DNA of 64,000 nt from a virus: IMG/VR virus record IMGVR_UViG_3300045988_049479, positions 117,652 through 181,651 of that record, one strand, 5' to 3'. Shown in pieces: positions 19,550-51,771 of this stretch (positions within the stretch are counted from its first letter, which is position 1; each line of letters opens with the position of its first letter). Made by a program: the position numbers and the translations under genes. Below the pieces are notes generated by a model. That model was not told where the DNA came from. It ran no database searches and saw only the letters and a program-made list of their open reading frames with translations.

Positions 19550-19566
19550 AACTATTAATTTTGGCG

Positions 19567-25907: not shown

Positions 25908-25981
25908 GTCCCGTTAGCTCAGTTGGATAGAGCAACAGCCTTCTAAGCTGTGGGTCGTAGGTTCGAATCCTACACGGGATA
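25908..25981 (+). tRNA. tRNA-Arg(TCT)
   Basis: Hand-folded cloverleaf. Anticodon arm acagc-CTTCTAA-gctgt; T-arm gtagg-ttcgaat-cctac. Confidence 0.8.
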
Positions 25982-26221
25982 CTAACAATTAAAAAACAAA
26001 ACTATGATACTATTTATTTATATCTTAGGAGTACTAATGGCATGGTTTCTAATGTATTTAGAAGAGAAATATCGTTATAAGAAGGAAAAGAACTATAAAT
26101 TTACTTTAGGTAATCTGTTATCAAGCATATTCTTTTCTTTATTTTCATGGATTGTAGTAGCAGCGTGCCTAATATCCTTGTCGGATAAAATAATCTTAGT
26201 AGATAAACCCGACTAATTAAT

Positions 26222-26295
26222 GACTCCGTAGCTCAGTTGGTTAGAGCACGATACTTTTAATATCGGGGTCCCGAGTTCGAATCTCGGCGGAGTCA
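26222..26295 (+). tRNA. tRNA-Lys(TTT)
   Basis: Acceptor gactccg/cggagtc; anticodon loop CTTTTAA. Confidence 0.8.
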
Positions 26296-26349
26296 CTCTT
26301 TTTCTTTTATTCCGCTAGTAAACATTTGTTGTGAAACACGTGTTTGCAT

Positions 26350-26422
26350 CTGGGTATAGTCGAGTTGGTAAGATGCTACATTTGGGATGTAGAGACCGCA
26401 GGTTCGAGTCCTGCTATCCAGA
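26350..26422 (+). tRNA. tRNA-Pro(TGG)
   Basis: Acceptor ctgggta/tatccag; anticodon arm ctaca-TTTGGGA-tgtag. Confidence 0.7.
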
Positions 26423-26627
26423 CAAGAAGTAATCAACATTCACTATTAGTACAGCAATTAGGACTGTAGGGTGCCTTTTAGATGAATCCCTGATTACTCC
26501 GATTAACAGAGGCAATGTCCTTAATATCGTTACCACGCACTGCGGCTATTAGCTGTTAGATGATTTGGGGTGCCAAATGGAAGAACGGTAACAGCTATGT
26601 TAATTAGAACGAATCTGTTAATTGTAT

Positions 26628-26710
26628 GGGAGTGCGCCAACGTTGGAGAGTTGGGCTTGACTGTAAATCAAGTGCCTATGGCTTAGAAGGTTCGAATCCT
26701 TCCACTCCCA
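26628..26710 (+). tRNA. tRNA-Tyr(GTA), type II
   Basis: Acceptor gggagtg/cactccc; loop CTGTAAA; long variable arm. Confidence 0.75.
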
Positions 26711-27332
26711 CAAATTTAATGAATATGTTAATAGGATTTTTAGTATTTATTACTCTAGAAATAGCTATAATAGCTACTATAGGGTTTACTTATTTTCACG
26801 AAGATGATAAGAATTTCAAGAATTATCGCAAAGGAAAGAATAGCTGATTTGTTAGACTTAAATTTCGTGTCTAAGATAGAATTAAGACAGGGAAAACAAG
26901 GATTTAATAATCCTGCTATTTGTAGAGTAGAAATCTATTTACTACTTGAAAACGACAAAGAGTACTTTAACTCCAAAATGACTGATATTATGTCATGGGC
27001 ACAAAAGAACAAATGTAACATTGCTTTTACTACTGCTAGTATGGCTCTCAAAGACGGATTTATTAAAGAATCTGCTTTTGATGACTTTAACTATCCAGTT
27101 CCTAAAAAGTATAAGGCATTATGTGATATTTATTCAGCAAGTTACTTTAATCTATTTAATAGAAGAAAGCTATAATGGAAGACAAGTACGAAGGATTATC
27201 TGATGAAGAACTTAAAGAGATTTTCGAAGATATGGAAGCAGACTATTGGATAGACTACTATCAGTCTCTTTGCGAATGAAACGCAGCAGTTGGCTTTCGG
27301 AATCTCTGTCTTAACAAAATGAGTCCGTAATT

Positions 27333-27416
27333 GGGATTGTAACCGGTAATTGGTAGCCGCGCAGACTGTAAATCTGCTCTCTTTTGAGACTGGAGGTTCG
27401 AGTCCTCCCAATCCCA
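27333..27416 (+). tRNA. tRNA-Tyr(GTA), second copy, type II
   Basis: Acceptor gggattg/caatccc; anticodon arm gcaga-CTGTAAA-tctgc; 14-nt variable arm. Confidence 0.7.
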
Positions 27417-28378
27417 CACATTTTAATTAATTAGATTATGACAAAAGAAGAAGCAATTAGAGCTATGTCTGAAGGAAAGAAAGTAAGGCATAGATACTTT
27501 AGTAAAGACGAATGGGTAACTATAAATTCCAGCGGACTATATGAGTTCGAGGATGGTGTAAAAGTTGATTCATCGTTATTTTGGATGGACAGACAGGATT
27601 CCTACTGGAATGATGGATGGAGCTTAGTTTAACTTTAAATAAGAATAAAATGACAACGTATGAGTACGGAAAAGGATACTTGCCAGAAATCTGGTACTAG
27701 TGTAATATTCCAAAAAGAAATTACGCAGTGTAGGGAATGTCCTCATTGTAGAATCGCTCCTGACCCAGACCCTGATGACTGGTTCAATGACGATGATGAA
27801 AAAGCGCTTTGTAAAGAAGCAGGTAATAAACTAATTGAGGGAATGTTAAGACCTTACGAAAGGGTATTAATTCCGGATTGGTGTCCATTAAAAACTAATA
27901 AACAAAAATGAATAGAATTAAGACAAAAGCCTATCTTGAGGTAACTTTAGAGCAGGCACGCGAATGGTATGAAAGCGGTAATGAAGACTTGAAGAAATTA
28001 GCTCTTACTGCATTTAGTGAGGAAATGCTAATTCCTTCCTTTAAAGAGATAGTAGAGTCTGAAGAAGATTATGGTTTTTGGAATACATTAGTATGTCCTC
28101 CAAGCATGACAGAACAACTCAGTTCTCTAGCTAGTTTACAAATAGTTGCTAACTATCTAAATAAAGGATGGATCAAAACAGAAGGTAATACTGGCTATTT
28201 TCTTGGAAAAGGTTCTTCTCTGTCTGGAAAGACGGAAACTGATATAAAAGGAGTGTACGTCGCCATGCATCAAGATGTAAAGTATCCAGGTGTTGTTTAT
28301 TTCAGAACTGTAGCTGATGCACAGAAAGCAGTAAAGATTCTTGGTAAAAAGTTATTGCCATTACTTAAATAATTTGAT

Positions 28379-28452
28379 GGTGTTATTAGTTCAGTTGGCA
28401 GAACGCTACATTGTGGCTGTAGAGGTCAGCGGTTCGAGTCCGCTATAACACC
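28379..28452 (+). tRNA. tRNA-His(GTG) with G-1
   Basis: Anticodon arm ctaca-TTGTGGC-tgtag; acceptor gtgttat/ataacac with an extra 5' G. Confidence 0.75.
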
Positions 28453-28482
28453 CTAATCATGTTTTATTAAATATTATAACGA

Positions 28483-29043
28483 ATGAAAAAGACAATTGAA
28501 ATTGAATGTCCAGATGGTTATAAACCCATCTATAATGCCGAAACTGGCAATGTTGAAATCGTTCCAGAAAACATTATGGGACGGATAAGAACCTATGAGG
28601 ATGCTGTAAACTATCTAGGGTGTGTTACTAGAGATACTATTTACTATAATAGATCTGTAAATTCTCTAGCTAAGTTGCAGACAGTCTTGGATGCGCTAAA
28701 TGAAGGTCACAAGTTCAATCTGTTAACTGGTACTATATGGTATCCCTGGGTTCGCTTCTTTAGAATGAAATCAGTTCCGAAGGATGCAGAGGTCATTGGT
28801 CACTTCCGTTATCAGGGCGAGAAATTCGCGTTGGTGGGCGGCTACGCGGATCTTGGCGGCGGTGCGGGTCTCGGCTATTTCTTTTCTCACCTTGGCGTCG
28901 GCGATGCCGATTCCGGTGTCGGGATGCTAGCGTGCAAATCTGAAGAAATTGCAAAATATGTGTCAACTCAGTTTGGAAAGCTAGTGTTTGATGCTTGTTT
29001 TGCAAGACATTTTGAAGGTAGAGAATTTGAATGGCTTGACTAA
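28483..29043 (+). CDS. DGR target protein 2 (remote, opposite strand from the RT/TR); carries VR2 about 40 codons before its C-terminus
   Basis: Tracker ORF of 186 aa. The stretch ALVGGYADLGGGAGLGYFFSHLGVGDADSGVGM is encoded by the GC-rich 28831-28923. Confidence 0.7.
   Translation: MKKTIEIECPDGYKPIYNAETGNVEIVPENIMGRIRTYEDAVNYLGCVTRDTIYYNRSVNSLAKLQTVLDALNEGHKFNLLTGTIWYPWVRFFRMKSVPKDAEVIGHFRYQGEKFALVGGYADLGGGAGLGYFFSHLGVGDADSGVGMLACKSEEIAKYVSTQFGKLVFDACFARHFEGREFEWLD
28831..28923 (+). repeat. DGR variable repeat VR2
   Basis: A 31-codon gap-free alignment to the TR and VR1. Every mismatch against the TR inside the repeat falls at a TR adenine; one c-to-t lies at the 5' edge. Confidence 0.8.
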
Positions 29044-29522
29044 TGAAAAAGTTCCTTGTATTTATGCTTGCTATGCTCTGGATGAGCGTAGCAGCTTTTT
29101 CTCAGATAACTATATCACAAGAAGACTATGATAAGTTGCCAAGCGATACTAGAACTCAAATTGAGAAGATAACAACAGAGAAAGCTATAAAGGGTGAAAT
29201 CAAAGAAGTATCTGAATATGCAAGTCTCGGAAAAGAGATTGGAGTTGCAGTAAATGAGACACTAAAGGCAGTTGAAGATTCGGCTATAAGAATATCTGAA
29301 TCTAATCTAGGACAAACAGCGATAACTATTGTAGTATGGAAATTACTATATAAGGAGATAGCTGGAGTCGTAATAGGTATACTACTGTTAGGAATATCTC
29401 TATTTTTACTAATAACTGGAAGAGGAAAACTATCTAAAGACGATGAAGATGCTGGCGGATGGATAAGTGTAGTCGGTGGCGCAGTATTCTTTATTTCTTC
29501 TATGATTTGTGTATTTGGCTGA
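29043..29522 (+). CDS. Membrane protein (signal peptide plus C-terminal transmembrane helices)
   Basis: Tracker ORF of 159 aa. N-terminus MKKFLVFMLAMLWMSVAAFS. Its start overlaps the stop of target 2. Confidence 0.45.
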   Translation: MKKFLVFMLAMLWMSVAAFSQITISQEDYDKLPSDTRTQIEKITTEKAIKGEIKEVSEYASLGKEIGVAVNETLKAVEDSAIRISESNLGQTAITIVVWKLLYKEIAGVVIGILLLGISLFLLITGRGKLSKDDEDAGGWISVVGGAVFFISSMICVFG

Positions 29523-30078
29523 GGAGCAGTCCAGGCTATAGGCTGGTGTATTCTAGCTATATTCTGTGTATTATTGCTTCTTGGATGTATATTAGACTAA
29601 CTAATTGGTTAGCCCTCTGGAAGGGTGGCAGAGTCAGGTTTAATGTAATCGTAAAGATGAAAATCTAATACAAATTTTGTAAAAATGAACGCTTGGGAAA
29701 GTTAGTATAAATCTCATCAAGGAAATTTAGGACTAGGAAGAGCTATAGCATACTATACTGCTCATTGCATTCCGGTCCTAATTCCCTTGAATGATACATA
29801 GAAATATGACATTGTAGTAGATAAAGAGGGTTTGAAGAGAGTATCAGTTAAAACTACTCAACATTAGGTAAAGAGTGGAAATTATGAAGTCTTGTTGAAG
29901 AATTGCGGAGGTTCATCTGGAGATTCTAAGATTAGACATTTTGATAATTCTACTTGTGATGTAGTATTTGTAGTAGTTATAACTGGGGACATGTATGAGA
30001 TTCCCTCAAGTGAAATAAATGTTAAAGGAGCCTTGACATTAACCAGTGATTGGGATAAATATAAGGTTTCATTATAAT

Positions 30079-30170
30079 GGAGGTATAAGCCTAATTGCTA
30101 AGGCAGCAGTCTTGAAAACTGCCAGTAATCGTGTAACAGCGATGTGTGGGTTGGAGTCCCACTGCCTCCT
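30079..30170 (+). tRNA. tRNA-Ser(TGA), type II
   Basis: Acceptor ggaggta/tgcctcc; anticodon arm gcagt-CTTGAAA-actgc; long variable arm. Confidence 0.7.
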
Positions 30171-30176
30171 CAATCT

Positions 30177-30249
30177 ATAGGATTAGTGTTAATGGTTAGC
30201 ACGTCAGTCTCCAAAACTGAAAGTAAGAGTTCGACCCTTTTATCCTATG
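30177..30249 (+). tRNA. tRNA-Trp(CCA)
   Basis: Acceptor ataggat/atcctat; anticodon arm tcagt-CTCCAAA-actga; weak T-stem. Confidence 0.55.
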
Positions 30250-30272
30250 CAAATATCAATAACTAAAAACTT

Positions 30273-30491
30273 ATGAAGAGAATTAGATTAATTTGTATGA
30301 TGGCTGTTGTAGCAATAGTTACGGCAGTCTGTTGTTCGTTTACTTCTAGGGAAGACCGAAATCATTTTTCGGTTGAAAAGGTATATACCGACCCTAATAG
30401 TCACATGAATGTCTATAGAGTTTCCGTTCCTGGGAGAGTGTATTACGTACTTCATAATACGACTCAAGGAGGGTTATGTAAATTACTATGA
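30273..30491 (+). CDS. Small lipoprotein-like protein
   Basis: Tracker ORF of 72 aa with a signal peptide and a Cys after it. Confidence 0.3.
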   Translation: MKRIRLICMMAVVAIVTAVCCSFTSREDRNHFSVEKVYTDPNSHMNVYRVSVPGRVYYVLHNTTQGGLCKLL

Positions 30492-31015
30492 GCGAAACTT
30501 ATTATCTCTTAGCAGCCATTTCGTATGGCATTTTTATTGTTCAGTTCATACTCTCTTGGTTTGGTGGCGACACTGACTTAGATGTAGATTTAGATGGAGA
30601 ATTGGACATGGATGTGAGTGATATTGTCTCTTTTAAAGGACTAGTACATTTTGTAATGGGAGCAAGTGGATGGCTTTGTATTAAGCATTCCGTTTCTCAT
30701 TCTATAGAATGGTACGATTATTTAATCGCACTAATATGCGGTATTCTTTTTGTGGTTATACTTTACTACTTATATAAACTTTGTTTAAAACTCCAACATC
30801 AAGTTATTCCTGAAAAGGGTGAAGCCTTAATCGGGAGAATTGGAACAATCACTATTCCTAATGATATTTCTGGTGGTAGTTCTGTTATCTTAGTTGAGAT
30901 AAATGGAATGCTTCAAGAATTGTCAGCTTATGCTGAAGAAGAGCATAAGACGTATAAAAACGGGGACAAAGTGAGAATTTCAAAATTTGAGAATGGAAAG
31001 TATTATTTTAACTAA
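30488..31015 (+). CDS. NfeD-like membrane protein (flotillin partner, C-terminal OB-fold)
   Basis: Tracker ORF of 175 aa. N-terminal transmembrane helices are followed by GEALIGRIGTITIPNDISGGSSVILVEINGMLQELSAYAEEE...GDKVRISKF. It sits directly upstream of the flotillin gene. Confidence 0.55.
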   Translation: MSETYYLLAAISYGIFIVQFILSWFGGDTDLDVDLDGELDMDVSDIVSFKGLVHFVMGASGWLCIKHSVSHSIEWYDYLIALICGILFVVILYYLYKLCLKLQHQVIPEKGEALIGRIGTITIPNDISGGSSVILVEINGMLQELSAYAEEEHKTYKNGDKVRISKFENGKYYFN

Positions 31016-31030
31016 AAAGAATTTTTAAAG

Positions 31031-40458: not shown

Positions 40459-40533
40459 GCAGGTGTGGTGTTAATGGATTGAGCACGCCAGACTTCCAAT
40501 CTGGAGGGGAGAGTTCGAGTCTCTCTACCTGCA
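40459..40533 (+). tRNA. tRNA-Gly(TCC)
   Basis: Acceptor gcaggtg/tacctgc; anticodon arm ccaga-CTTCCAA-tctgg. Confidence 0.75.
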
Positions 40534-40538
40534 CATTT

Positions 40539-40610
40539 GTGGGTATAGCACAATGGTTAGTGCATCGGCTTGCCATGCCGAGGATGTGAGTTCGATTCTC
40601 ATTATCCACT
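40539..40610 (+). tRNA. tRNA-Gly(GCC)
   Basis: Acceptor gtgggta/tatccac; anticodon arm tcggc-TTGCCAT-gccga. Confidence 0.75.
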
Positions 40611-40614
40611 CTTT

Positions 40615-40696
40615 TCCGATTTAGCTCAGTATGGTAGAGCGCCCATACCAATAAAGCATTAGTGGGAGGTCAGAGGTTCAAATCCTTTAATCGGAA
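40615..40696 (+). tRNA. tRNA-like gene (82 nt) with good acceptor, D and T arms but an unresolvable anticodon arm (gcccataccaataaagcattagtgggag)
   Basis: Acceptor tccgatt/aatcgga pairs perfectly. D-arm gctc-agtatggta-gagc. T-arm agagg-ttcaaat-ccttt. I could not fold the middle segment into a 5-bp stem with a 7-nt loop. Confidence 0.35.
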
Positions 40697-40782
40697 CGAC
40701 GAAACAAGGCTCCACAGCAGTTACAAGTTGTAACTGGTCTTATCTCCGAATAGCTAGTCTTACGGGGTGGAGAAGTAGTCAC

Positions 40783-40857: not shown

Positions 40858-40992
40858 CTCGACGTGCAAGTCTTTTAACTACAAATAGTTAACGTGTCTG
40901 GTTACGTTATCACCCAGTCGTCACCTACGGTTAGAAGGCGTCCCTTATCGTGAAAGGCATCCCTGAGTAGCGGATGTAAATTAGCTACTAAT

Positions 40993-41073
40993 ATCGTGGA
41001 GTAGAGAAGTTGGTCATCTCGCTAGGCTCATAACCTAGAAATCGTCATAAACGGTTCGAATCCTACCTCCGCA
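40993..41073 (+). pseudogene. Degenerate tRNA-like element; CAT anticodon arm (ctagg-CTCATAA-cctag) intact but T-stem and acceptor do not pair
   Basis: The D-stem gaga/tctc and the anticodon arm are fine. The 5' T-stem reads aacgg against cctac, and no complementary acceptor could be found. Confidence 0.3.
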
Positions 41074-41316
41074 ACTAAACTCCTTTTGTGGCTCTGTTAT
41101 TAGATTAATTATTAACAATTTTAAACTTTAATGTTATGAAGAAAGTAATTAATGTTGTAAAGAAAGCTGCTAAATGGTATTTTGAACAGAGTTCTAAGAA
41201 CTACACTTGGTTAGTGTCTGGAACAATACCTCCTCCATACAGAGGACAAGAGTAAAAATATCATTAAAAGGTAAGTACCAATGGGGTACTTACAGATGTC
41301 TGGGAGGAAATAATAT

Positions 41317-41401
41317 GTATGGTTAGCCAAGTGGCCGACGGCAGCGGGCTGTTAACCCGCCGTGAGAAATCCCATCGCAGGTTCGAATCCTGCACCATAC
41401 G
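41317..41401 (+). tRNA. Type II-sized tRNA (85 nt) with anticodon GTT (Asn codons) and a 16-nt unpaired variable region; atypical
   Basis: Acceptor gtatggt/accatac pairs perfectly. Anticodon arm gcggg-CTGTTAA-cccgc pairs perfectly. T-arm gcagg-ttcgaat-cctgc. Confidence 0.5.
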
Positions 41402-41561
41402 CCTTTTTGCTGAACCCTCCTTAGTTTTTAACTAAGCAATAGTAATCCAGCAAACTCTAGACCGATGTGAGGAAGAGAGTCGTCTAGACGGTAGCTAGCA
41501 CTGTAGTACGCAATGGTGGAATAGAAACGGCTAGCATCCACCAATTTTTAATTAATTAGAT

Positions 41562-42626: not shown

Positions 42627-42699
42627 GGGCCGTTAGCTCAAATGGCTAGAGCGCTGGTTTTGCACACCGGAAGATAGGGTTCGAGTCCCTGCGTGTCCA
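42627..42699 (+). tRNA. tRNA-Ala(TGC)-like with G3.U70 but mismatched acceptor base pairs 5 to 7 (possibly decayed)
   Basis: Anticodon arm ctggt-TTTGCAC-accgg; T-arm taggg-ttcgagt-ccctg; acceptor gggccgt versus cgtgtcc. Confidence 0.4.
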
Positions 42700-42906: not shown

Positions 42907-42978
42907 CGCGGGGTGTTAGCAGAGGTAGCTAGTCAGGCTCATAACCTGAAGGTCGAGGGTTCGAGTCCCTCTCCCGCT
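42907..42978 (+). tRNA. tRNA-Met(CAT), initiator-like (position 1-72 mismatch)
   Basis: Anticodon arm tcagg-CTCATAA-cctga; T-arm gaggg-ttcgagt-ccctc; acceptor cgcgggg/tcccgct with a C1 x U72 mismatch. Confidence 0.55.
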
Positions 42979-43012
42979 ACTAGTAATTAATTAGATACTT
43001 AATTTTTAGATT

Positions 43013-44312: not shown

Positions 44313-44584
44313 GGCCTCTGATATAATCCAACTTAAAGACCTAAAGGATGGAGAATTTGCAGAAGTGATAGAATGGTTTGAGGATGGAACAGTATCTAAC
44401 GGAGATATAATTCAAAGATGTGGACTTGCACTATTTATATTAGGAAGTTGTTCTTACTATCCTGAGATATTTAGTAAGGGTGCTAGAGACTATACTAATA
44501 CTAAGTTACGAACACTACCTGAGGGTACAACTATAATGTTATAATTTCTTTTTCCAGTTTTCTAATTAAAGATAAACTGGGTAT

Positions 44585-45158
44585 GGGCCTACTTGGATTT
44601 GACAGGCGATTACAAATTATAAGGACGTGTAGAGCGCAATCTCTTTAAACGAAGGAAAAACAATAAATGCTACTTATAGCGAAGTAAGAATGGCAGCCTA
44701 AGCTGCTGGCTTGTTGGTAGACACTATTAACTAAGTCGGGTTACAGGAGAGACCTAGAAACAGAAGAGGTTGAGTATATTGATATAATGGAGAGCTAGGC
44801 TCTAATCCTAGTAATATACTCTTAATCGGAACACTCTAAGAGTTAGTAAGACTGAATCTCCTATGTCATAAAACAGATGGAAGATGTGTTCCATGAGATG
44901 TGACGAATCTCTAAAGTATCATCCCGTTCTCCAACGTAAAATGGAGTGGTGGAGCGACCGTTCGGTCAAGCCCAGTTTGGTAGTTTGTGAACAACTAAGT
45001 CGTAGCCTTACGAGGAGACGTAATTGGTGAATTAACACTCGGCTTCTTAGTAAAACTACCTACATGCTGAACTCAACAGCTGATGTAATAAAAATGAGAC
45101 GCACGTTATCCTTGTAACGAGGGTTGTTTGGACACGGGTTCGACTCCCGTTAGGTCCA
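44585..45158 (+). ncRNA. ssrA: tmRNA (ssrA)-like RNA with G3.U70 acceptor; putative tag ORF at 44636-44701 ends TAA
   Basis: The 5' end gggccta-cttggatttgacaggcg matches the conserved tmRNA 5' pattern (GGGG..UGGAUUCGAC.GG). The 3' end ggacacgggttcgactcccgt-taggtcc-a forms a T-arm plus an acceptor complementary to the 5' end. There is no ORF of 60 aa or more in the 1 kb region. A frame GCA...ATG GCA GCC TAA follows a UAGAGC resume-like context and gives AISLNEGKTINATYSEVRMAA. Confidence 0.55.
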
Positions 45159-45247
45159 CATTCTTTGTAGCAATTCCTGGCACGGGAGGTATCCTGATAT
45201 AAAGATACTTACAAATGTGCATTTTGCACGGTGGTACAAAGAGAAAT

Positions 45248-45321
45248 AGGGCTATAGCTCAACTGGTTAGAGCACCACACTGATAATGTGGAGGTTATCA
45301 GTTCAAGTCTGATTAGCCCTA
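45248..45321 (+). tRNA. tRNA-Ile(GAT)
   Basis: Acceptor agggcta/tagccct; anticodon arm ccaca-CTGATAA-tgtgg. Confidence 0.8.
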
Positions 45322-45388
45322 CAAAACCGCCAGCTCACGCGGTATATAAGAAAGGATTGCCGGACTCGCAGGTGTAACGAGATAAATA

Positions 45389-45461
45389 CCTGCATTTTCG
45401 AGGCTGTGGTGTAATGGCTTGCATATCACACTGTCACTGTGAAGGTTGGGGTTCGAATCCC
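45389..45461 (+). tRNA. tRNA-Asp(GTC)
   Basis: Acceptor cgaggct/agtctcg; anticodon arm tcaca-CTGTCAC-tgtga. Confidence 0.7.
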
Positions 45462-45468
45462 CCAGTCT

Positions 45469-45541
45469 CGGCATTTATTCCCCTGTAGTTTAGTTGGTTA
45501 GAACACGTGATTTGTAATCTCGAGACCTCGGTTCGAATCCG
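45469..45541 (+). tRNA. tRNA-Thr(TGT)
   Basis: Acceptor tcccctg/tggggga; anticodon loop TTTGTAA; T-arm ctcgg-ttcgaat-ccgag. Confidence 0.65.
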
Positions 45542-45578
45542 AGTGGGGGATCTTAACCATTAAATTAGATTAATTTTT

Positions 45579-46253: not shown

Positions 46254-46256
46254 GAT

Positions 46257-46328
46257 AGCGCCATCATCTAATGGTTAGGATTCAGGCTTTTCACGCCTGC
46301 CATACGGGTTCGAATCCCGTTGGCGTTA
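46257..46328 (+). tRNA. tRNA-Glu(TTC)
   Basis: Anticodon arm caggc-TTTTCAC-gcctg; T-arm acggg-ttcgaat-cccgt. Confidence 0.75.
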
Positions 46329-46385
46329 CTATGTACCCCAGCAGCGGAAGTTGTTGGGGTATTTTTTGTTTAATATAATTAATAA

Positions 46386-46706: not shown

Positions 46707-46709
46707 AAA

Positions 46710-47135: not shown

Positions 47136-47323
47136 CGCTATGAAGGAATCTTCTATACTTAAAGCAATTTCTGACGCTATTGAAGAATACGAGGAAAATC
47201 AACAAAGACGAATAGACCTGTTAGAGAGTAAAATTCTGCTATTTGAGAGAGAAAGGGAGGCTTTTATTCGGCATTTGAGAGAAGGAAACATTCAATTATT
47301 AAAGGATTATCTAGGAATTAAAG

Positions 47324-47647
47324 ATGAGTAAGTACTATTTAATTAAGGAATGTAATAATATTCCTTTTATCTTAGGACAGTTCGATAGTATTGAAGAGGC
47401 TGAGGCCGCTCTTCCTTCTACAAATAAGAAGGGAGCTAAGCACTTTGTCGTTTGTTCTACAGAGCAATTAAAGTCAGCAAGGGCGGCTATATCCTACTTA
47501 CAAGAAGAACTTAGAAAGAGTCGAGAGGAGGTACGGCAATGGAGGGATTTAGAACTTAAAACAAGGCTAGATTTCTCAAACCAAATCTGTGAATTATCGA
47601 AGATAGCTAATCTAACTGTAGAGGACCTAACTAAAGTATTGTTATGA
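47324..47647 (+). CDS. Hypothetical protein
   Basis: Tracker ORF of 107 aa. Confidence 0.35.
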   Translation: MSKYYLIKECNNIPFILGQFDSIEEAEAALPSTNKKGAKHFVVCSTEQLKSARAAISYLQEELRKSREEVRQWRDLELKTRLDFSNQICELSKIANLTVEDLTKVLL

Positions 47648-48100
47648 TAGTAAGTTCTCCTTTTGATAAAGATTTGCTTGGACATGAGATAAGGGGTGTA
47701 AATACATCTTACTACGGACTTTCTGCATTGCAGGCTGTAATAAATCATGACGGAATCCGTCAAGATATTGCAAAATATATGTATAGAGACTGCATTGTAG
47801 ATGGAGGACGAAAAGGAGTAATCATAGGATTTGAGGATAATAATCAATTCTTTGATTACTACTATATAGTCTATGTACCAGAGCTAAATACTACTGTATA
47901 TCAATTAGCTAATGATGCGAGATTTATTAATTCAATTGAGATATGAAAGTATATTATATTTCAATTCCCACGGCATATGACGGGCAAGTCCCTATAAACT
48001 ATGAGAAGATCTCTCCTCTTTTTCTAGAGAAGAAAGACGCTATAGAATGGGCGGTAACTCAAAATTACTGGGATATTAGATTAATAGAAGAAGAAGTTTT

Positions 48101-48595
48101 ATGAAAAAGAAAGTTTTAATTATCCTTATGATTAGTATTGTATTCGGATTTGCAACTGGTTATTCTTTGCATCATCTGATACATTTCAATCAGAAACAGG
48201 AGGAAATGGTATTGCTGCCAGAGCATCCATTCTACTTATTGGATGAAGTAAACGAAGAAGTATTGTACAATACTTTGAAGCATTACGATTTTCCAAATCC
48301 AGCAATTATAACAGCTCAGGCTGTTCTGGAATCTGGCAATTTTAAATCGAAACTTTGTAAGGACAATAACAATCTGTTCGGATTGTATAATTCCAGAACA
48401 ATGTCTTACTTCAAGTTCGATAGTTGGATAAGCTGTGTATTCGCTTATAAGCAATTTATCCTTAGTAAGTATAACCCAGAAGAGGATTATTACAAATTCC
48501 TAGACAGAATTGGCTACGCTGAGGATTCCTTGTATGAAAGTAAAGTTAAGGAATTGGAATTAGATATACTTAATAAATATGGAAGCTCAAATTGA
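48101..48595 (+). CDS. Membrane-anchored peptidoglycan hydrolase (GH73-like N-acetylglucosaminidase)
   Basis: N-terminal transmembrane segment. AQAVLESGNFKS...NNLFGLYN resembles the FlgJ/AcmA glucosaminidase motifs (AQAxLESGWG ... NNLFGIK). Confidence 0.5.
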   Translation: MKKKVLIILMISIVFGFATGYSLHHLIHFNQKQEEMVLLPEHPFYLLDEVNEEVLYNTLKHYDFPNPAIITAQAVLESGNFKSKLCKDNNNLFGLYNSRTMSYFKFDSWISCVFAYKQFILSKYNPEEDYYKFLDRIGYAEDSLYESKVKELELDILNKYGSSN

Positions 48596-48926
48596 AGAAG
48601 CTATCAAATTTAGAAAGAAAGCCAATTTCAAGATATTAACTAGATTGAGTCAAATCATTGACCAATATCCTTATCTAAGATTTCACCAAATTCTTATGAT
48701 ATATAAGATTAGTGAGCTGGGAGTGGATAAGTTCAATGAGGAGAGTGTAGAAACTTTGAAGAAGCTAGAGCATGAAATGGTGGAAAAAGGAATTAGTAAG
48801 ATTACTAGTAATAGTTCTGATGGGAACAATACTATTAGTAACTAGGGAAGTAATGGGTTTTGAGACCGCAGTTATGACTGGTCTAACTATTATATTATGC
48901 AATCAAATATTTAACGAATAAAGATT

Positions 48927-50942
48927 ATGAATTTTAAAGATTTCAAGAAAGATGTAGAGTCTGCTTTCAATGCTATGATTGCAGATAATTTATTTGTAGT
49001 TAATGTAGACAAAGACCTTTTGTGGATGAGTTATCTTCTCTCCTTTGAGGACGAAACAATTCGGCAAGATCACAATTGTAATGCTTGTAAGTCTTTCATA
49101 CGTCACTATGGTAAGGTAGTCGCTATAGACCCTCAAACCTACAAGGTGAAAACCTTCTGGGATGATGTTCACACTCCTGGCTATGAAAAGACCGCATCTG
49201 ATTTAGCTAAGCTCGTTAAGGAAGCCGGAATAGGAGATATATTCATTCAGGATGTTAATGAGTTTCACGGTTGTGACCATAATGTGCAACTTCTTCCTGA
49301 TGGAACTACTAGAACTTGGACTCACTTGTACGTGACTATTCCTAACAAGTTTAAATTCAACAAGAGAGTACATCATTTCGATTCTGCCGCAGGTTATCGC
49401 GGAGATGTTAGAGCTAGAGCTGGTGTCTTTGAACGTTCTCTTTCCGAGCTTAAACTAAGTGCGGTAGAAACCGTAATTGAGTTGATAGAGGATAATAATC
49501 TCTATCGCGGAGAAGAGTTCCTAAAGACTCTGCAAGAGTTCAGAAGAACTATGCTTGAGGCCGATAATCTCTCACCAGAGGTTCGCACTAACTATTGTTG
49601 GTTTAACTTCAAATCTCCAATAGCTAAGATTAGAAATACAGCTATGGGAACTCTACTGATTGACTTAAGTAATGGTGTGGACCTGGAAAGAGCTGTTAAG
49701 TCTTATGAGAACATTATGGCTCCATCTAACTATAAGAGACCTACTGCTCTTATTACTAAGAAACAAATTGAGGCTGCTCAGAAGAAGGTTGAAGAACTTG
49801 GGTTAACTGATGCCCTTCCTCGCCGTCATGCTCGTGTAGAAGATATTTCTGTAAACGACGTTCTGTTCGTAAATAGAGATACTCGTGCACGTATGAAAGG
49901 AGGTATATTTGACTCTTTAAAAGAGACCTCAACGGTTAATCCTAAAGAGTATACCAAAGCTACTGAAATCTCAATTTCGGAGTTTGTAACTAATGTATTG
50001 CCGCACTCTAAGGATGTGCAAATTCTTGTTGAGAATAAGCATATTCCTAATTTTGTTACCCTAACTGCTCCAGAGAACCCTGATGCAGGTCAGCTGTTCA
50101 AATGGAAGAATAACTTCGCTTGGGTGTATAATGGCTCTATGGCGGATTCATTTAAGGAGAAAGTGAAAGCAGCAGGTGGTAACGTAAATGGATTCCTAAG
50201 GTGTTCTCTACACTGGTTTAACTATGATGACCTTGACCTCCATGTAACAGAACCTGGTGGTAATGAAATCTATTACGGACACAAGAGAGGATTAACTGGT
50301 GGTACACTAGATGTAGATATGAACGCTGGTTCTGGTAAAACCAGAGATGCAGTTGAGAATATTATCTGGACTGACCAATCTAGACTCAGAGCAGGTCAAT
50401 ATGTAGTGAGAGTGCATAACTTCTGCAAAAGAGAGCATATAGACTTTGGATTCGAGGTAGAAATCGAAATCAATGGAGAGCTTCATAAGTTCAACTATGA
50501 TAAGATGGTGCCAGACAGAGAATATATTACGGTAGCAACTATCAAGGTAGATTCTATTGGTAATATAACCCTAAGTCCGGTAATTGCCGAAGGTGCAACC
50601 TCATATAAGTCTATGAACGAGTGGGGCATTGATACTATGCGTTTCCAAACTGTTTCTTGCATCATGTATTCTCCAAATTATTGGGAAGGTAATGAAATAG
50701 GAAACAAGCACCTATTCTTCATGATTGATGGATGTAAAAATCCTGACCCAGTTCGAGGATTCTTCAATGAATATCTGAGACCCGATCTCGAAAAAGATCA
50801 TAAGAGAGTATTCGAAGCTATTGGCTCTAGAGCTAAAGCAGAATACAACGATAACCAGTTGAGTGGACTAGGATTCTCTAGTACGTCTCACGACGAGGTT
50901 GTAGTTAAAGTTGATAATAAACCATTTAAAATTAAATTCTAA
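48927..50942 (+). CDS. Large hypothetical protein
   Basis: Tracker ORF of 671 aa with no TAG. Confidence 0.5.
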   Translation: MNFKDFKKDVESAFNAMIADNLFVVNVDKDLLWMSYLLSFEDETIRQDHNCNACKSFIRHYGKVVAIDPQTYKVKTFWDDVHTPGYEKTASDLAKLVKEAGIGDIFIQDVNEFHGCDHNVQLLPDGTTRTWTHLYVTIPNKFKFNKRVHHFDSAAGYRGDVRARAGVFERSLSELKLSAVETVIELIEDNNLYRGEEFLKTLQEFRRTMLEADNLSPEVRTNYCWFNFKSPIAKIRNTAMGTLLIDLSNGVDLERAVKSYENIMAPSNYKRPTALITKKQIEAAQKKVEELGLTDALPRRHARVEDISVNDVLFVNRDTRARMKGGIFDSLKETSTVNPKEYTKATEISISEFVTNVLPHSKDVQILVENKHIPNFVTLTAPENPDAGQLFKWKNNFAWVYNGSMADSFKEKVKAAGGNVNGFLRCSLHWFNYDDLDLHVTEPGGNEIYYGHKRGLTGGTLDVDMNAGSGKTRDAVENIIWTDQSRLRAGQYVVRVHNFCKREHIDFGFEVEIEINGELHKFNYDKMVPDREYITVATIKVDSIGNITLSPVIAEGATSYKSMNEWGIDTMRFQTVSCIMYSPNYWEGNEIGNKHLFFMIDGCKNPDPVRGFFNEYLRPDLEKDHKRVFEAIGSRAKAEYNDNQLSGLGFSSTSHDEVVVKVDNKPFKIKF

Positions 50943-50944
50943 TT

Positions 50945-51319
50945 ATGTACAAACAAGCGTCTAAAATGAAGTTGCGCTTTGCAACTAGTAAAGGTAATTT
51001 GAGTGTGGAAGATTTGTGGGACCTAAGTCTGCCTGCATTGGACAGACTGGCAGTGTCCTATGACGAAGAATTAGCCAAGAGTCCTAGAAAATCTTTCATA
51101 ACTAATGATACTCCTAGCAATAGCGAACTGGAGTTAAAGTTCAACATTGTGAAAGATGTTATCACTGATAAGCTGAAAGACAAGGCCGCTAGAGAAGCAG
51201 CTAAAGATAAGGCAGCTGAGAAGGCACGCCTGACTGAACTGCTGGCTAAGAAACAGTCCGAGAAAATGGAAAGTATGTCCGAAGATGAAATCAGACAACG
51301 ACTTGCAGAACTCGGATAA
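50945..51319 (+). CDS. Hypothetical protein
   Basis: Tracker ORF of 124 aa. Confidence 0.4.
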   Translation: MYKQASKMKLRFATSKGNLSVEDLWDLSLPALDRLAVSYDEELAKSPRKSFITNDTPSNSELELKFNIVKDVITDKLKDKAAREAAKDKAAEKARLTELLAKKQSEKMESMSEDEIRQRLAELG

Positions 51320-51685
51320 TTGTGTCGTATTGAAAACAGTTAGTCCACAAATCTTAGATAAACTAAGAGAAAGTGGATTGACTGTTTGTACGTGTTGTGA
51401 ATTTCCTGGTACAGCCTGGTTAGTATTCAGACCAAATATGCCTACATCGGATATTCACGGTGAGGGGTATGACTTCGAAGAGATAGGACTTTTTGGAACA
51501 GAGGCCGTTCTCAAATACTTCGAAGCTAACACTCCGAATTATGTAGATTGCGGAACTGATGTCGATAAATTTATTAACATTTGTTTGCAGTTTAAATAAG
51601 TTAACGGTTTTTAACTTTGAATTTAACACTTGTACTGTTATTATAGTAAGTTGATTAGCGGTACGTGAGTATAGCTAATCACTAT

Positions 51686-51771
51686 GCCCGAATGGTGGAA
51701 TTGGTAGACACGTCAGATTTAAGCTCTGATGCCCAGTAATGGGCGTGTGGGTTCGAGTCCCACTTCGGGTA
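51686..51771 (+). tRNA. tRNA-Leu(TAA), type II
   Basis: Acceptor gcccgaa/ttcgggt; anticodon arm tcaga-TTTAAGC-tctga; long variable arm. Confidence 0.75.

Follow-up and report, generated by a model that had tools for sequence, protein, structure and literature searches.

Structurally non-canonical tRNA families in the dispersed tRNA island of a distantly crAss-like gut phage

The locus studied here raises the question of whether phage tRNA genes that break the usual structural rules are decayed remnants or genes at work. It lies in the window, the whole stretch of 64,000 nucleotides that we analyzed (positions 117,652 to 181,651 of the IMG/VR record IMGVR_UViG_3300045988_049479), where an earlier note had described a large island of canonical, duplicated, atypical, and decayed tRNA genes. 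The explanation that we consider the best overall, and in which we have moderate confidence, is that of a translation module that includes odd tRNA families and evolves by exchange of cassettes, with most of the odd members probably being working genes rather than wrecks. The island as a whole is of a known kind; its novelty lies in the conserved families of non-canonical tRNAs.

The window is part of a gut phage genome of ~190 kb that is distantly crAss-like. Its large terminase shares 26 to 29% identity with counterparts from crAss-like phages, and contigs of its relatives in IMG/VR reach 178 to 193 kb. The phage probably belongs to the Zeta group, a placement that rests on the ~190-kb size, the recoding, and the distant terminase match and not on a tree; a block of 26 to 29 tRNAs has been reported in Zeta-group phages (PMC12386605). 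The late genes read TAG as sense: ORF coverage of the minus strand at 1 to 20 kb rose from 22% to 83% when TAG was taken as sense, and TAG is found at 22.7 per 1,000 late codons versus 0 per 1,000 early codons. The island is located in the plus-strand, standard-code half, which would hold the early genes, and we infer that it constitutes a translation module there.

With default settings, ARAGORN found 25 tRNA genes at 25908 to 51772, all on the plus strand, and the Rfam model RF00005 returned, at its gathering score, the same 25 plus 42627 to 42699, for a total of 26 tRNA genes, which share a single 26-kb stretch with a tmRNA. The two programs thus confirmed the large mixed island, and 20 mononucleotide shuffles of the region gave no ARAGORN call. 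Since the tRNA genes occupy only 2,156 of 25,864 bases, among about 45 small ORFs, they form a dispersed array and not a tight cluster. All 24 canonical anticodons previously read by hand were reproduced, with none reassigned, and three of the four atypical calls (40615 to 40696, 40993 to 41073, and the Ala-like gene) were accepted, the one at 35069 to 35137 being rejected; a tRNA-Asn(GTT) at 41317 to 41403 was missing from that list. In 27 of 28 tRNA or tRNA-like genes (P = 4e-21), including all five atypical ones, a C directly follows the discriminator base on its 3' side, which points to a common 3' processing context.

The canonical genes (coordinates, ARAGORN score, and Rfam bits given in parentheses) start with tRNA-Arg(TCT) (25908 to 25982; 122.4; 71.5), tRNA-Lys(TTT) (26222 to 26296; 121.8; 70.8), and tRNA-Pro(TGG) (26350 to 26423; 118.0; 66.4), followed by two class II tRNA-Tyr(GTA) genes (26628 to 26711; 109.3; 41.2 and 27333 to 27417; 109.2; 47.4), both carried by most relatives. 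Then come tRNA-His(GTG) (28380 to 28453; 121.8; 64.2), with G-1 and C73, and tRNA-Ser(TGA) (30079 to 30171; 109.8; 48), in which TTGGAGT is the T-loop and the D-loop lacks GG, and of which a second, alternative type occurs in relatives. They are followed by tRNA-Trp(CCA) (30177 to 30250; 110.5; 54.6), tRNA-Ser(GCT) (33050 to 33138; 124.4; 52), tRNA-Phe(GAA), with a 9-nt variable loop (34063 to 34140; 120.9; 67.2), and tRNA-Gln(TTG) (34204 to 34276; 120.9; 66.3). The Ile2-like CAT tRNA at 34989 to 35064 (114.4; 66.7) has a prophage tRNA-Ile(CAT) as its top Escherichia coli match (77.9% over the full length) and is probably a tRNA-Ile2 that would read ATA after lysidine modification. Downstream are tRNA-Leu(TAG) (36632 to 36713; 116.7; 51.6), a first tRNA-Cys(GCA) (39072 to 39146; 114.4; 59.1), tRNA-Gly(TCC) (40459 to 40534; 109.4; 55.1), tRNA-Gly(GCC) (40539 to 40611; 119.6; 67.7), and a second tRNA-Cys(GCA), of class I in this phage (40783 to 40858; 111.1; 52.9). 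Both pairs described as duplicated, Tyr and Cys, are therefore present, but identities within the pairs of 73% (Tyr) and 71% (Cys) rule out recent duplication. The initiator-type tRNA(CAT) F (42907 to 42980; 108.5; 41.4) shows a C1.U72 mismatch and a T stem that covaries in relatives (gaggg/ccctc versus gtcgg/ccgac), and the array is completed by tRNA-Ile(GAT) (45248 to 45322; 119.5; 74.3), tRNA-Asp(GTC) (45399 to 45472; 114.6; 54.7), tRNA-Thr(TGT) (45479 to 45552; 116.2; 60.5), tRNA-Glu(TTC) (46257 to 46329; 112.4; 58.1), and tRNA-Leu(TAA) (51686 to 51772; 119.2; 56.9).

Judging from their sequences, three members belong to structurally non-canonical families shared with unrelated phages. The first is the 87-nt tRNA-Asn(GTT) (ARAGORN 122.1, Rfam 56 bits), which has an extra variable arm, a 7/5 acceptor/T branch, and G73, and which stands in place of the 73-nt class I tRNA-Asn of relatives. 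Extra-arm tRNA-Asn of the same family is carried by phiKZ and coliphage 4MG, and across 19 diverse sequences that include these two, 93.8% of cells pair; the corresponding figures are 63.7% for shuffles and no more than 43% for slid controls. Covariation is seen at 20 of 22 pairs, and G73 never varies. As an extra arm and G73 are also the core of serine identity (PMC9976931), this tRNA could be charged with Ser instead of Asn. The extra arms, with stems of 3 to 4 bp and 3 to 4 unpaired 3' bases, are nonetheless like those of tRNA-Tyr and unlike those of tRNA-Ser, and the discriminator of extra-arm tRNAs fits the anticodon (U in 13/13 for Cys, A in 12/13 for Lys, and G in 21/22 for Asn), so that we favor charging with Asn.

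The second member, tRNA C (40995 to 41075, previously placed at 40993 to 41073; ARAGORN 109.5, Rfam 38.5 bits), is initiator-like, with a CAT anticodon, a C1.A72 mismatch, and A11:U24, and carries a 6-nt insertion within the 5' strand of its T stem. Streptomyces phage GiJojo and unrelated IMG/VR contigs have the same T-stem insertion. Among the 12 distinct sequences of the family, 100% of cells pair, in a comparison where the T-stem region was partly fixed by the search pattern used, with compensatory changes in six pairs and at most 50% pairing in slid controls. The view of C as a decayed gene with a "broken" T stem is not supported, given this family with its conserved insertion.

The third, the Ala(TGC)-like tRNA E (42627 to 42699; Rfam 39.5 bits), reached an ARAGORN call (93.3) only after the threshold was relaxed. 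Its acceptor stem is irregular, and it displays G3.U70 and A73; we computed its minimum free energy fold, and the acceptor possibly consists of 8 bp with one bulged U, next to a 4-bp T stem. KVP40-like Vibrio phages contain a homologue with the same irregular acceptor, identical to E in its acceptor, variable-loop, and T-stem sequences and different at 4/5 anticodon-stem pairs and one D-stem pair, where pairing is kept. Only 1 of the 73 sites of E varies among relatives, versus 76/120 and 41/120 in the flanks, and this contrast, together with the acceptor shared with Vibrio phages, argues against E being a decayed gene. E and C are nearly invariant in the clade, which leaves few independent comparisons on which to base their structures (two versions in the case of E).

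The extra-arm tRNA-Asn, C, and E each retain the identity nucleotides expected for their own anticodon, and we propose that they would be expressed, processed, and charged as ordinary tRNAs. They could instead serve as decoys or regulators, as conservation is a sign of selection and is silent on a role in translation. If they function as tRNAs, as we prefer to think, the altered shape may itself be under selection, most plausibly as a way to evade cleavage or inactivation by host enzymes that act on standard tRNAs.

Two further elements depart from the canonical structure. tRNA B (40615 to 40697; ARAGORN 101, Rfam 52.9 bits) combines canonical acceptor, D, and T arms with a 15-nt loop on a 5-bp anticodon stem, a loop length that makes its anticodon ambiguous. 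Eight variants among relatives have loops of 13 to 19 nt ending with CAT-Y-R and keep the cloverleaf and the anticodon stem, the latter with one compensatory pair; a search of GenBank phages gave no match. Element A (35069 to 35137, plus strand) possesses a 7-bp acceptor with G3:U70, A73, and a canonical T arm, along with an irregular D arm and a 9-nt "anticodon" loop. It was rejected as a tRNA, with no ARAGORN call even at the 85% threshold and no Rfam match even at E≤1. Its fold has a z score of -2.2, it is present in 7 relatives only, where it is identical, and no match was found in the GenBank phages searched.

There are tRNAs for 18 amino acids in the set (19 if E accepts alanine). As tRNA-Val is missing and none of the genes is a clear elongator tRNA-Met, the phage set cannot fully stand in for the host pool. 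U34 anticodons are favored, matching the A/U-ending codons of the phage. Watson-Crick plus G.U/U.G pairing allows the set to read ~76% of codons, and ~92 to 94% are read when U34 serves whole four-codon boxes and ATA is included (35 per 1,000 late codons), a figure that assumes that the CAT tRNA at 34989 is Ile2. This codon match is a one-sided argument, weighed on the phage side alone. The set likely lets the phage translate its own genes, the TAG-recoded late genes included, without the host tRNA pool, which may mismatch the phage codons or may fall to tRNA-targeting defenses; phage tRNAs that evade PARIS, retron, and anticodon nucleases have been described (PMC11464382, PMC11555353, PMC10264068). 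The 2H phosphoesterase and NAMPT genes noted below would fit the same defense context.

We then compared the island across ~35 related contigs and found that its order is kept, while tRNA cassettes have been exchanged or lost, or have undergone fusion at the T-loop. Class I and extra-arm forms alternate at the same position for both Asn and Cys (an 86-nt extra-arm tRNA-Cys replaces Cys copy 2 in L015, L024, L013, and L033), and the position after the Ile2-like tRNA exists in four different states. L014 contains a truncated remnant, and in at least four hybrid genes (C+Thr, F+Thr, E+tmRNA, and Gln+Leu) the junction falls exactly at the T-loop sequence GGTTCGA. Gene turnover is thus real, and the proposed birth and death of tRNA genes holds in this respect but not for the atypical members taken as decayed.

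We propose that two processes shape the island: the replacement of cassettes, and recombination between T-loops, whose sequences are nearly identical from one tRNA gene to another. Resident endonucleases probably stimulate the swaps and hybrids, by analogy with SegB, a T4-type GIY-YIG enzyme that cleaves tRNA genes at the T-loop motif and causes the tRNA region to rearrange (PMC13096335). The candidates are a Seg-like, free-standing GIY-YIG homing endonuclease (36793 to 37437, plus strand; domain 44.9 bits) and an HNH homing endonuclease (36320 to 36622, plus strand), which matches PHROG HNH families (E=1.6e-17) and scores 21.0 bits with Pfam HNH, slightly under the 21.4 cutoff. The GIY-YIG ORF contains three in-frame TAGs and yields the full domain only when TAG is read as Gln; the TAGs are retained in L036 and L020, and paralogues at other loci have sense codons there.

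Outside the island, the amber suppressor tRNA(CTA) (19566 to 19638, minus strand; ARAGORN 124.9, Rfam 66.3 bits) had been attributed to duplication of tRNA-Gln. It shares 78% identity with tRNA-Gln(TTG) and at most 69% with any other tRNA of the window, and sequence identity thus marks it as a paralogue of tRNA-Gln. A second Gln-derived tRNA (21958 to 22027, plus strand; ARAGORN 113, Rfam 49.6 bits) has a 6-nt loop, TTTAAA, and its body is found in relatives with a 7-nt loop and the anticodon CTA or CTG (Gln), in further support of that origin.

The tmRNA at 44585 to 45161 (plus strand; Rfam RF00023, 63.1 bits, cutoff 47) encodes the tag ATYSEVRMAA and contains an insertion of 253 nt that the Rfam model lacks. 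Its alignment shows an acceptor G3.U70 and a tag ORF ending with UAA, and the tmRNAs of relatives score 66 to 76 bits. The RF00023 match, like those of the GIY-YIG and HNH genes, confirms the reported location of the tmRNA and the homing endonucleases inside the island. A 2H phosphoesterase is also encoded there (35276 to 35686, plus strand; Pfam tRNA_lig_CPD 31.1 bits, cutoff 23), with two HxTx motifs, HCTL and HITI, in its translation, and a NAMPT gene is located just downstream of the island.

ARAGORN (default settings) found 28 tRNA genes in the window, 25 of which were located at 25908-51772, all on the + strand, and it made no call in 20 shuffles of the island region. The Rfam tRNA model, used at its curated threshold, returned the same 25 tRNAs together with a gene at 42627-42699, and a tmRNA was found at 44585-45161. 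The island groups 26 + strand tRNA genes in 25.9 kb, in the same window as terminase and portal genes, and is a phage tRNA gene cluster. The tRNA genes cover 2,156 of its 25,864 bases and the remainder is made up of ∼45 small ORFs; among the ∼33 ORFs that were scanned, 22 had no match in Pfam, PHROGs, or NCBIfam. The same tRNA order was found in 34 IMG/VR loci, with local gains, losses, and swaps. The array is real, conserved, and mosaic; four of its five odd members are under purifying selection, and three of them belong to families common to unrelated phages.

The canonical anticodons that an earlier note had proposed from the sequence alone were all reproduced, namely, Arg(TCT), Lys(TTT), Pro(TGG), Tyr(GTA) twice, His(GTG), Ser(TGA), Trp(CCA), Ser(GCT), Phe(GAA), Gln(TTG), Leu(TAG), Cys(GCA) twice, Gly(TCC), Gly(GCC), three CAT genes, Ile(GAT), Asp(GTC), Thr(TGT), Glu(TTC), and Leu(TAA), and the homing endonucleases and the tmRNA that it had placed inside the island were located there. 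Its atypical calls fared unevenly: those at 40615-40696 and 40993-41073 were made by both tools, the Ala-like call was made by Rfam and by ARAGORN at a relaxed threshold only, and the element at 35069-35137 was rejected as a tRNA by ARAGORN at an 85% threshold and had no Rfam match at an E value of ≤1. A high-scoring tRNA-Asn(GTT) of 87 nt (41317-41403) was absent from its list.

We then analyzed the structures of the odd members. Four of them, the big-loop tRNA (40615-40697), an initiator-like CAT tRNA (40995-41075), the Ala(TGC)-like tRNA (42627-42699), and the tRNA-Asn, score 52.9, 38.5, 39.5, and 56 bits, respectively, with RF00005, the gathering threshold of which is 29 bits. None of the four has the canonical class I cloverleaf (7-bp acceptor, 5-bp T stem, 7-nt anticodon loop, and short variable loop). 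The big-loop tRNA has a 15-nt anticodon loop, the initiator-like tRNA has a 6-nt insertion and one mismatch in its T stem, the Ala-like tRNA lacks pairs 5 to 7 of the 7-bp acceptor, and the tRNA-Asn has a 15-nt extra arm region. No CCA is encoded by the tRNA genes of 25908-51772, and a C stands directly 3' of the discriminator in 27/28 tRNA or tRNA-like genes, the five atypical ones among them (P = 4e-21 for a C content of 15.6%); tRNA-Leu(TAG) is the sole exception. Among the canonical members, tRNA-Ser(TGA) (30079-30171, +) has the T-loop TTGGAGT, with a G in place of the near-invariant C56, and the D-loop AATTGCTA, without the usual GG, which may reflect a swapped G19:C56 tertiary pair. Relatives hold either this type of Ser(TGA) or a standard one.

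The phage carries a − strand block (1-20 kb) encoding the large terminase, the portal protein, and a reverse transcriptase. This block makes sense as coding DNA only with TAG as a sense codon, which raises its ORF coverage from 22% to 83%, TAG accounting for 22.7 per 1,000 codons there, and the + strand block that includes the island uses the standard code nearly throughout. The large terminase is 26 to 29% identical to crAss-like terminases and 42 to 45% identical to those of unclassified fecal phage contigs. The longest related IMG/VR contigs are mostly 178 to 193 kb, with many shorter fragments and one of 270 kb, and near-identical GenBank fragments are of human fecal origin. Given the terminase similarity, the related contigs reaching 178 to 193 kb, and the human fecal source, the phage fits the Zeta group of crAss-like phages, a placement that we regard as probable. 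For this group, two papers (PMC7886860, PMC12386605) describe blocks of 26 to 29 tRNAs, suppressors with a CTA anticodon, and recoding of the late genes. The window and the Zeta blocks share a human gut source, genomes of 145 to 192 kb, many tRNAs in one block, a suppressor tRNA(CTA), recoding limited to late genes, reverse transcriptases (of diversity-generating retroelements in the Zeta group, and possibly so in the window), and mobile endonucleases. The window itself has TAG as sense in the − strand block and 28 tRNAs, which, with the length of the longest related contigs, is in keeping with the genome size, the many tRNAs, and the recoded late genes that characterize the Zeta type. The reverse transcriptase (758-1762, −; PHROG E value of 4.5e-89), which has 6 in-frame TAG codons, may belong to a diversity-generating retroelement, a feature described for the Zeta group.

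Several + strand ORFs (39794-40423, 38620-39594, 54080-54595, and 35565-36149) are much longer with TAG read-through, 5 TAGs being found in 39794-40423, so a few genes of the standard-code half may also be recoded, like the GIY-YIG endonuclease gene. Upstream of the island, a RAGATH-14 RNA (21725-21931, +; 156.6 bits with Rfam for a gathering threshold of 149.1) lies 26 nt upstream of a Gln-derived tRNA (21958-22027, +) with a 6-nt loop, TTTAAA. In relatives, the body of this tRNA carries a normal 7-nt loop with either CTA (suppressor) or CTG (Gln). A subthreshold match to the RAGATH-1 hammerhead ribozyme (23857-23933, +; 29.7 bits versus a gathering threshold of 56.3, E value of 0.36), some 2 kb away from this RNA element, is probably due to chance.

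We calculated from the codon counts of late and early genes how much of the phage's own coding the set could read. Watson-Crick pairing with G.U and U.G wobble covers ∼76% of late and ∼76% of early codons, the addition of ATA through the Ile2-like CAT tRNA (34989-35064) raises this to ∼80% and ∼78%, and the further assumption that U34 reads whole four-codon boxes raises it to ∼94% and ∼92%. The best Escherichia coli match of the Ile2-like tRNA is a prophage gene annotated as tRNA-Ile(CAT) by NCBI, which makes it a candidate for tRNA-Ile2, whose CAU anticodon receives lysidine from the synthase TilS. No elongator tRNA-Met look-alike was found among the island tRNA genes. We infer that, with this array, the phage can translate without depending on the host tRNA pool. 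The whole set might be explained by codon compensation alone, the tRNAs supplying A/U-rich codons poorly read by the host and the odd shapes being tolerated as neutral quirks. Indeed, the mostly U34 or G34 anticodons match the commonest codons of this phage, which has 36% G+C (AGA, AAA, GAA, TTA, GGA, and ACA, with ATA through the Ile2-like tRNA), and rare codons such as CGN (Arg) have no phage tRNA. However, the set extends to codons that any genome uses often and includes no tRNA-Val despite 56 to 62 Val codons per 1,000, and the comparison is one-sided, as it uses phage codons only. Moreover, neutral quirks are not expected to stay identical across crAss-like, T4-like, and actinobacteriophage lineages. 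We thus consider compensation unlikely as the whole explanation.

Since the mosaic nature of the island defeats region-wide alignment, we compared the conservation of each element with that of its 120-nt flanks across relatives. The Ala-like tRNA is the most conserved element of the island, with 1/73 variable sites for 76/120 and 41/120 in the flanks. We found a full-length homologue, 80% identical, in 26 KVP40-like Vibrio phages (e.g., phi-Grn1, KT919972). These T4-like myoviruses infect marine Vibrio and are unrelated to the window phage in host and family, and their GenBank records either leave the gene without annotation or mark it as a pseudo "tRNA-OTHER" gene. Both versions have the irregular acceptor strands GGGCCGU and GCGUGUCCA, the same variable loop and T stem, and the TGC anticodon, and they differ at 4/5 pairs of the anticodon stem and at one of the D stem, pairing always being kept. 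In the Rfam register, it has G1-C72, G2-C71, G3.U70, C4-G69, and A73, of which the G3.U70 wobble pair and A73 are the elements of tRNA-Ala identity. The minimum-energy fold is predicted to have an 8-bp acceptor with one bulged U and a 4-bp T stem, in a region that is invariant in both versions and so offers no covariation. This predicted layout resembles the 8/4 tRNAs with a bulged base and a 12-bp branch described by Mukai et al. in 2017 (PMC5389517), except that the bulge would lie in the 3' strand of the acceptor rather than at position 51a. The nev-tRNAs of nematodes (Hamashima 2016, cited in the same paper) are, with the allo-tRNAs and 8/4 tRNAs of bacteria and phages, among the close systems.

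The initiator-like tRNA at 40995-41075 varies at 29/81 sites, mostly because of one divergent copy, for 111/120 and 73/120 in its flanks. It has the C1.A72 mismatch and the A11:U24 pair, both features of bacterial initiators; the other initiator-type CAT tRNA (42907-42980) has C1.U72, and C.A, C.U, U.C, or A.A is found at 1:72 within the family. Of the three G:C pairs that close the anticodon stem of initiators, only two are present in the two window genes (A29:U41, G30:C40, and G31:C39), and all three are present in the Streptomyces phage GiJojo and in several IMG/VR members of the family. The 6-nt insertion (consensus WYAAAC) lies between T-stem positions 51 and 52. GiJojo has it too, in a tRNA-Met of 81 nt, as do a dozen different sequences that come from unrelated viral contigs. 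In the family alignment, 100% of the cells in 19 pairs were standard, versus ≤50% in slid controls, and 6 pairs showed compensatory changes; the evidence is weaker for the T-stem helix than for the others, as the search pattern fixed part of that region.

The 87-nt tRNA-Asn is a member of a family found in other phages. BLAST matches annotated as tRNA-Asn were found in GenBank for phiKZ (89 nt, beside an HNH gene), coliphage 4MG, Cronobacter phage GAP31, Klebsiella and Xanthomonas phages, and others. The alignment of 19 diverse members shows a 7/5 cloverleaf plus an extra hairpin, in which 93.8% of cells pair (63.7% in shuffles and ≤43% in slid controls), 20/22 pairs show changes on both sides, and the pairs of the arm covary. 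This hairpin is that of a class II tRNA, but the anticodon is not one of Ser, Leu, or Tyr, since GTT was present in 19/19. The anticodon and G73 were both invariant in the 19 aligned members. A search for the motif in bacterial and archaeal genomes gave at least 120 matches, and the 120 listed were all due to chance and without a tRNA, the pattern being too loose to inform. A derivation from tRNA-Tyr (GTA to GTT) would agree with the Tyr-like arm, yet identities of 0.695 to 0.706 do not separate Tyr, Ser, and Leu as sources, all three being candidates.

Extra arms are not restricted to Asn. A motif scan of IMG/VR yielded 110 distinct tRNAs with a long variable region and a non-Ser/Leu/Tyr anticodon in the loci analyzed (Asn, 23; Met, 18; Lys, 16; Cys, 13; Ile, 8; others; and Ala, 0), a sample biased by the motif. 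GAAA tips were found in 44/110 arms, a high share that is partly an artifact since the first scan required GAGAAATC; GCAA, GAAUA, and CAGAUUA tips also occurred. An extra-arm tRNA-Cys(GCA) of 86 to 87 nt with the arm AAAGA-GAAA-UCUUU and U73 is present in four relatives (L015 13200-13285, L024 13084-13168, L013 13163-13247, and L033 12690-12776). We also noted a tRNA-Ile(TAT) of 91 to 95 nt with a long variable arm, most loops being CAGATTA, in unrelated viral contigs (L093, L104, L110, L127, L139, L148, and L152). The annotated tRNA-Lys of phage 4MG (L301 1234-1317) reaches 84 nt through additional nucleotides around the D arm and not through a variable arm, which is another unusual layout for a phage tRNA.

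The identity set of tRNA-Asn consists of the G34 U35 U36 anticodon and the G73 discriminator, and the extra-arm tRNA-Asn, with GTT and G73, matches it and would be expected to accept asparagine. A long variable arm with G73 is also the core of serine identity, and an A73-to-G73 change switches class II tRNAs to Ser (PMC9976931); moreover, bacterial allo-tRNAs with non-Ser anticodons insert Ser (PMC5389517), so the extra-arm tRNA-Asn could be charged by seryl-tRNA synthetase and the phage could deliberately mistranslate Asn codons as Ser. Its arm is Tyr-like, however, with a 3-bp stem and 3 unpaired 3' bases, versus 5-bp stems and 1 unpaired base in the tRNA-Ser of the same phages, and extra arms in general have 3- to 4-bp stems and 3 to 4 unpaired 3' bases, a geometry that is found in tRNA-Tyr but not in tRNA-Ser. 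The discriminator also follows the amino acid of the anticodon (U in 13/13 for Cys, A in 12/13 for Lys, and G in 21/22 for Asn), which argues for charging by the cognate synthetase and, with U73 for Cys and A73 for Lys, does not suit seryl-tRNA synthetase. Unlike allo-tRNAs, which combine an 8/4 or 9/3 layout with a long variable arm (PMC5389517), the extra-arm tRNA-Asn has the standard 7/5 layout, with covariation support for both helices, a short arm, its own amino acid's discriminator, and no Ser-accepting look. Among relatives, the class I tRNA-Asn gene of 73 nt and the extra-arm gene of 87 nt never occur together, a cassette of ∼260 bp taking the place of one of 113 bp, so that the extra-arm form replaces the standard tRNA-Asn and is not added to it. 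Serine charging thus appears highly improbable, and cognate charging remains our reading for the extra-arm tRNAs. The spacers 40698-40782, 40859-40994, and 41404-41554 (+) hold strong hairpins (e.g., GTTACA-AGT-TGTAAC) that are poorly conserved among relatives, and the stretch at 41404-41554 moves together with the extra-arm Asn cassette.

The two remaining odd members are restricted to relatives of the phage, neither having a match in GenBank phages. The big-loop tRNA is confined to this clade, about half of the relatives lacking it. Its eight variants all retain the full cloverleaf, with one compensatory change in the anticodon stem, and its loop of 13 to 19 nt always ends with CAT-Y-R. The element at 35069-35137 has a tRNA-like acceptor and T arm, without further support as a tRNA, and was found only in 7 identical copies. 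We rejected its origin as a cut-down tRNA-like domain of the tmRNA, as its identity to the joined tmRNA ends (0.59) was no better than to unrelated tRNAs. A nondecoding role, as a decoy or a regulator, is possible, particularly for these two members; the loop of the big-loop tRNA would not fit normal decoding. Such a role could be extended to all noncanonical members, which would act as decoys or inhibitors that soak up nucleases, aminoacyl-tRNA synthetases, or the rescue or initiation machinery; the element at 35069-35137 and the Ala-like tRNA share the alanine determinant G3.U70 and A73, also used by tmRNA, the acceptor/T half of the Ala-like tRNA is invariant when its anticodon half is free to change, and irregular tRNAs that are charged yet stay outside translation are known (PMC5389517). 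Against this extension, UGC in the Ala-like tRNA and CAU in the T-stem-insert initiator are kept across very distant phages, and all extra-arm tRNA-Asn genes keep GUU and G73, as decoding tRNAs would do. In addition, the extra-arm tRNA-Asn replaces the only standard tRNA-Asn at the same site in relatives, which implies that the two forms are equivalent. As a general account, decoys therefore seem very unlikely to us, and decoding remains the preferred function for these three families.

The tmRNA (44585-45161, +) scores 63.1 bits with Rfam for a cutoff of 47 and is kept in relatives, with lengths of 500 to 565 nt. It has the acceptor GGGCCUA/UAGGUCC with G3.U70 and would encode the tag ATYSEVRMAA followed by UAA. 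Like phage-encoded tmRNAs (e.g., that of Stenotrophomonas phage Yut3), it is located within a tRNA cluster and has a G3.U70 tRNA-like domain and a tag frame that ends with AA and a stop; unlike them, it is 577 nt long, with an insertion of 253 nt where the Rfam consensus has 33 nt.

We then looked into the rearrangements of the island. Besides the Asn cassette swap, the second tRNA-Cys is class I in the window and extra-arm in four relatives, and the site 3' of the Ile2-like tRNA exists in four alternative states, with a truncated remnant in one relative (L014). Four independent hybrid genes are joined exactly at the T-loop: the T-stem-insert initiator with Thr, the other initiator-type tRNA with Thr, the Ala-like tRNA with the 3' end of the tmRNA, and Gln with Leu. 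These hybrids give a concrete picture of how tRNA arrays get reshuffled. The turnover suggested in the earlier note is thus borne out. The Tyr and Cys pairs are not fresh duplicates: they are 73% and 71% identical, respectively, and throughout the clade neither pair has lost a member, which points to old paralogues or separate acquisitions.

This turnover could mean that the island is a nursery in which tRNA genes are born and die, the atypical members being pseudogenes on their way out, as was first proposed. The cassette swaps, hybrids, and truncated remnant agree with it, as do the rejection of the 35069-35137 element by both tools and its few copies, the absence of the big-loop tRNA from about half of the relatives, and the pseudo "tRNA-OTHER" flag given by GenBank annotators to the Vibrio homologue of the Ala-like tRNA. 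However, the Ala-like tRNA holds its sequence at all but one site while its flanks vary freely; this gene, the T-stem-insert initiator, and the extra-arm tRNA-Asn are also found in unrelated phages, where the odd features are preserved and compensatory changes lie elsewhere, and the C after the discriminator is kept in all five atypical genes. Conservation largely refutes decay for these three genes, and we consider the nursery quite unlikely as an explanation of the odd members.

As for possible agents of rearrangement, tRNA-Leu(TAG) is flanked by an HNH endonuclease gene (36320-36622) and a GIY-YIG endonuclease gene (36793-37437). The latter matches Pfam GIY-YIG over positions 1 to 78 of 78 (44.9 bits) only when three in-frame TAGs are read as sense; read in this way, it also shows a subthreshold NUMOD1 match (22.5 bits versus a cutoff of 22.8) and weak HTH matches. 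All three TAGs are kept in two near-identical relatives, and paralogues elsewhere have sense codons at those positions. In T4-type phages, the GIY-YIG endonuclease SegB cuts tRNA genes at the T-loop motif RAWTSGAAC and drives rearrangement of the tRNA region, which in T4/T6 helps the phage escape tRNA-cutting defense (PMC13096335). By analogy, the resident endonucleases may cut at T-loops and drive rearrangement as SegB does. The island shares with the T4/T6 tRNA region a free-standing GIY-YIG endonuclease among tRNA genes (PMC13096335), but its endonuclease is a family-level match encoded by a gene that needs TAG read-through, and its rearrangements, as seen from one genome to another, consist of deletions, hybrids, and cassette swaps rather than tandem amplification.

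Codon usage is the usual explanation for large phage tRNA sets, and escape from tRNA-cutting defenses through point mutations is a more recent one. Our results show a third pattern beside those, architectural tRNA variants that are conserved with compensatory changes and are common to gut crAss-like phages, phiKZ, coliphage 4MG, KVP40-like vibriophages, and Streptomyces phages. We tentatively propose that phage islands carry families of structurally noncanonical but functional tRNAs (such as those with an extra arm for Asn, Cys, Lys, and further class I amino acids, T-stem-insert initiators, and irregular-acceptor tRNA-Ala) that move horizontally between unrelated phages, in which the architecture, not the anticodon, would be maintained by selection, possibly because such tRNAs would be charged and decode while evading host nucleases or other enzymes. 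We infer that the odd architectures are selected for, most plausibly because they would avoid host enzymes that recognize standard tRNAs. This idea gains plausibility from documented cases of escape by point changes and from the position of the island among likely counterdefense genes. Phage tRNAs escape tRNA-targeting defenses in the cases of T5 tRNA-Lys versus PARIS (PMC11464382), T5 tRNA-Tyr versus a retron (PMC11555353), and anticodon-loop variants (PMC10264068). These are phage isoacceptors that differ from host tRNAs, with decoding kept and nuclease recognition blocked, as may also hold for those of the window; the known escape tRNAs carry point changes in the anticodon stem-loop, whereas those of the window are altered in architecture, with an added arm, a T-stem insertion, or an irregular acceptor.

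The large tRNA block of a Zeta-type crAss-like phage is already known, and the three noncanonical tRNA families and their spread across phages are apparently new. The available excerpts of the Zeta papers (Yutin et al. 2021, PMC7886860, and a 2025 paper, PMC12386605) count tRNAs with tRNAscan-SE and discuss suppressors, and they contain no description of extra-arm, T-stem-insert, or irregular-acceptor tRNAs, a tmRNA, or T-loop hybrids. More broadly, within an incomplete coverage of the literature, we found no description of extra-arm Asn, Cys, or Lys tRNAs, of the T-stem-insert initiator, of the KVP40 "tRNA-OTHER" family, or of their spread. GenBank annotates these variants as ordinary tRNAs, as pseudogenes, or not at all, so phage tRNA counts and "pseudogene" flags understate functional tRNA diversity. 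Several carriers are culturable, which makes charging, decoding, and shape-based protection from defense nucleases directly testable.

The island lies among likely counterdefense genes, with a small 2H phosphoesterase that has two HxTx motifs inside it, downstream of the Ile2-like tRNA, and a nicotinamide phosphoribosyltransferase (NAMPT) gene just downstream. A PDB sequence search with the 2H phosphoesterase gave no significant match. The NAMPT gene (58321-59871, +; 112 bits with Pfam) is followed by an ORF (60264-61073, +) with a weak PRTase-CE match (25.7 bits for a cutoff of 27), and the two may form an NAD salvage pair. Such pairs are used by phages against NAD-depleting defenses. Directly upstream of the first tRNA, a radical SAM protein (24896-25855, +) shows weak RlmN/Cfr similarity (34 bits, far below the cutoff). 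RlmN methylates A37 of tRNAs as well as rRNA, and a tRNA-modifying role for the phage protein is conceivable. Finally, an SPFH/Band 7 domain protein of 652 aa is encoded in the middle of the tRNA array (31031-32989, +), and an OmpA-like phage protein encoded at 55427-56443 (+) combines an outer-membrane beta-barrel domain with an OmpA domain.
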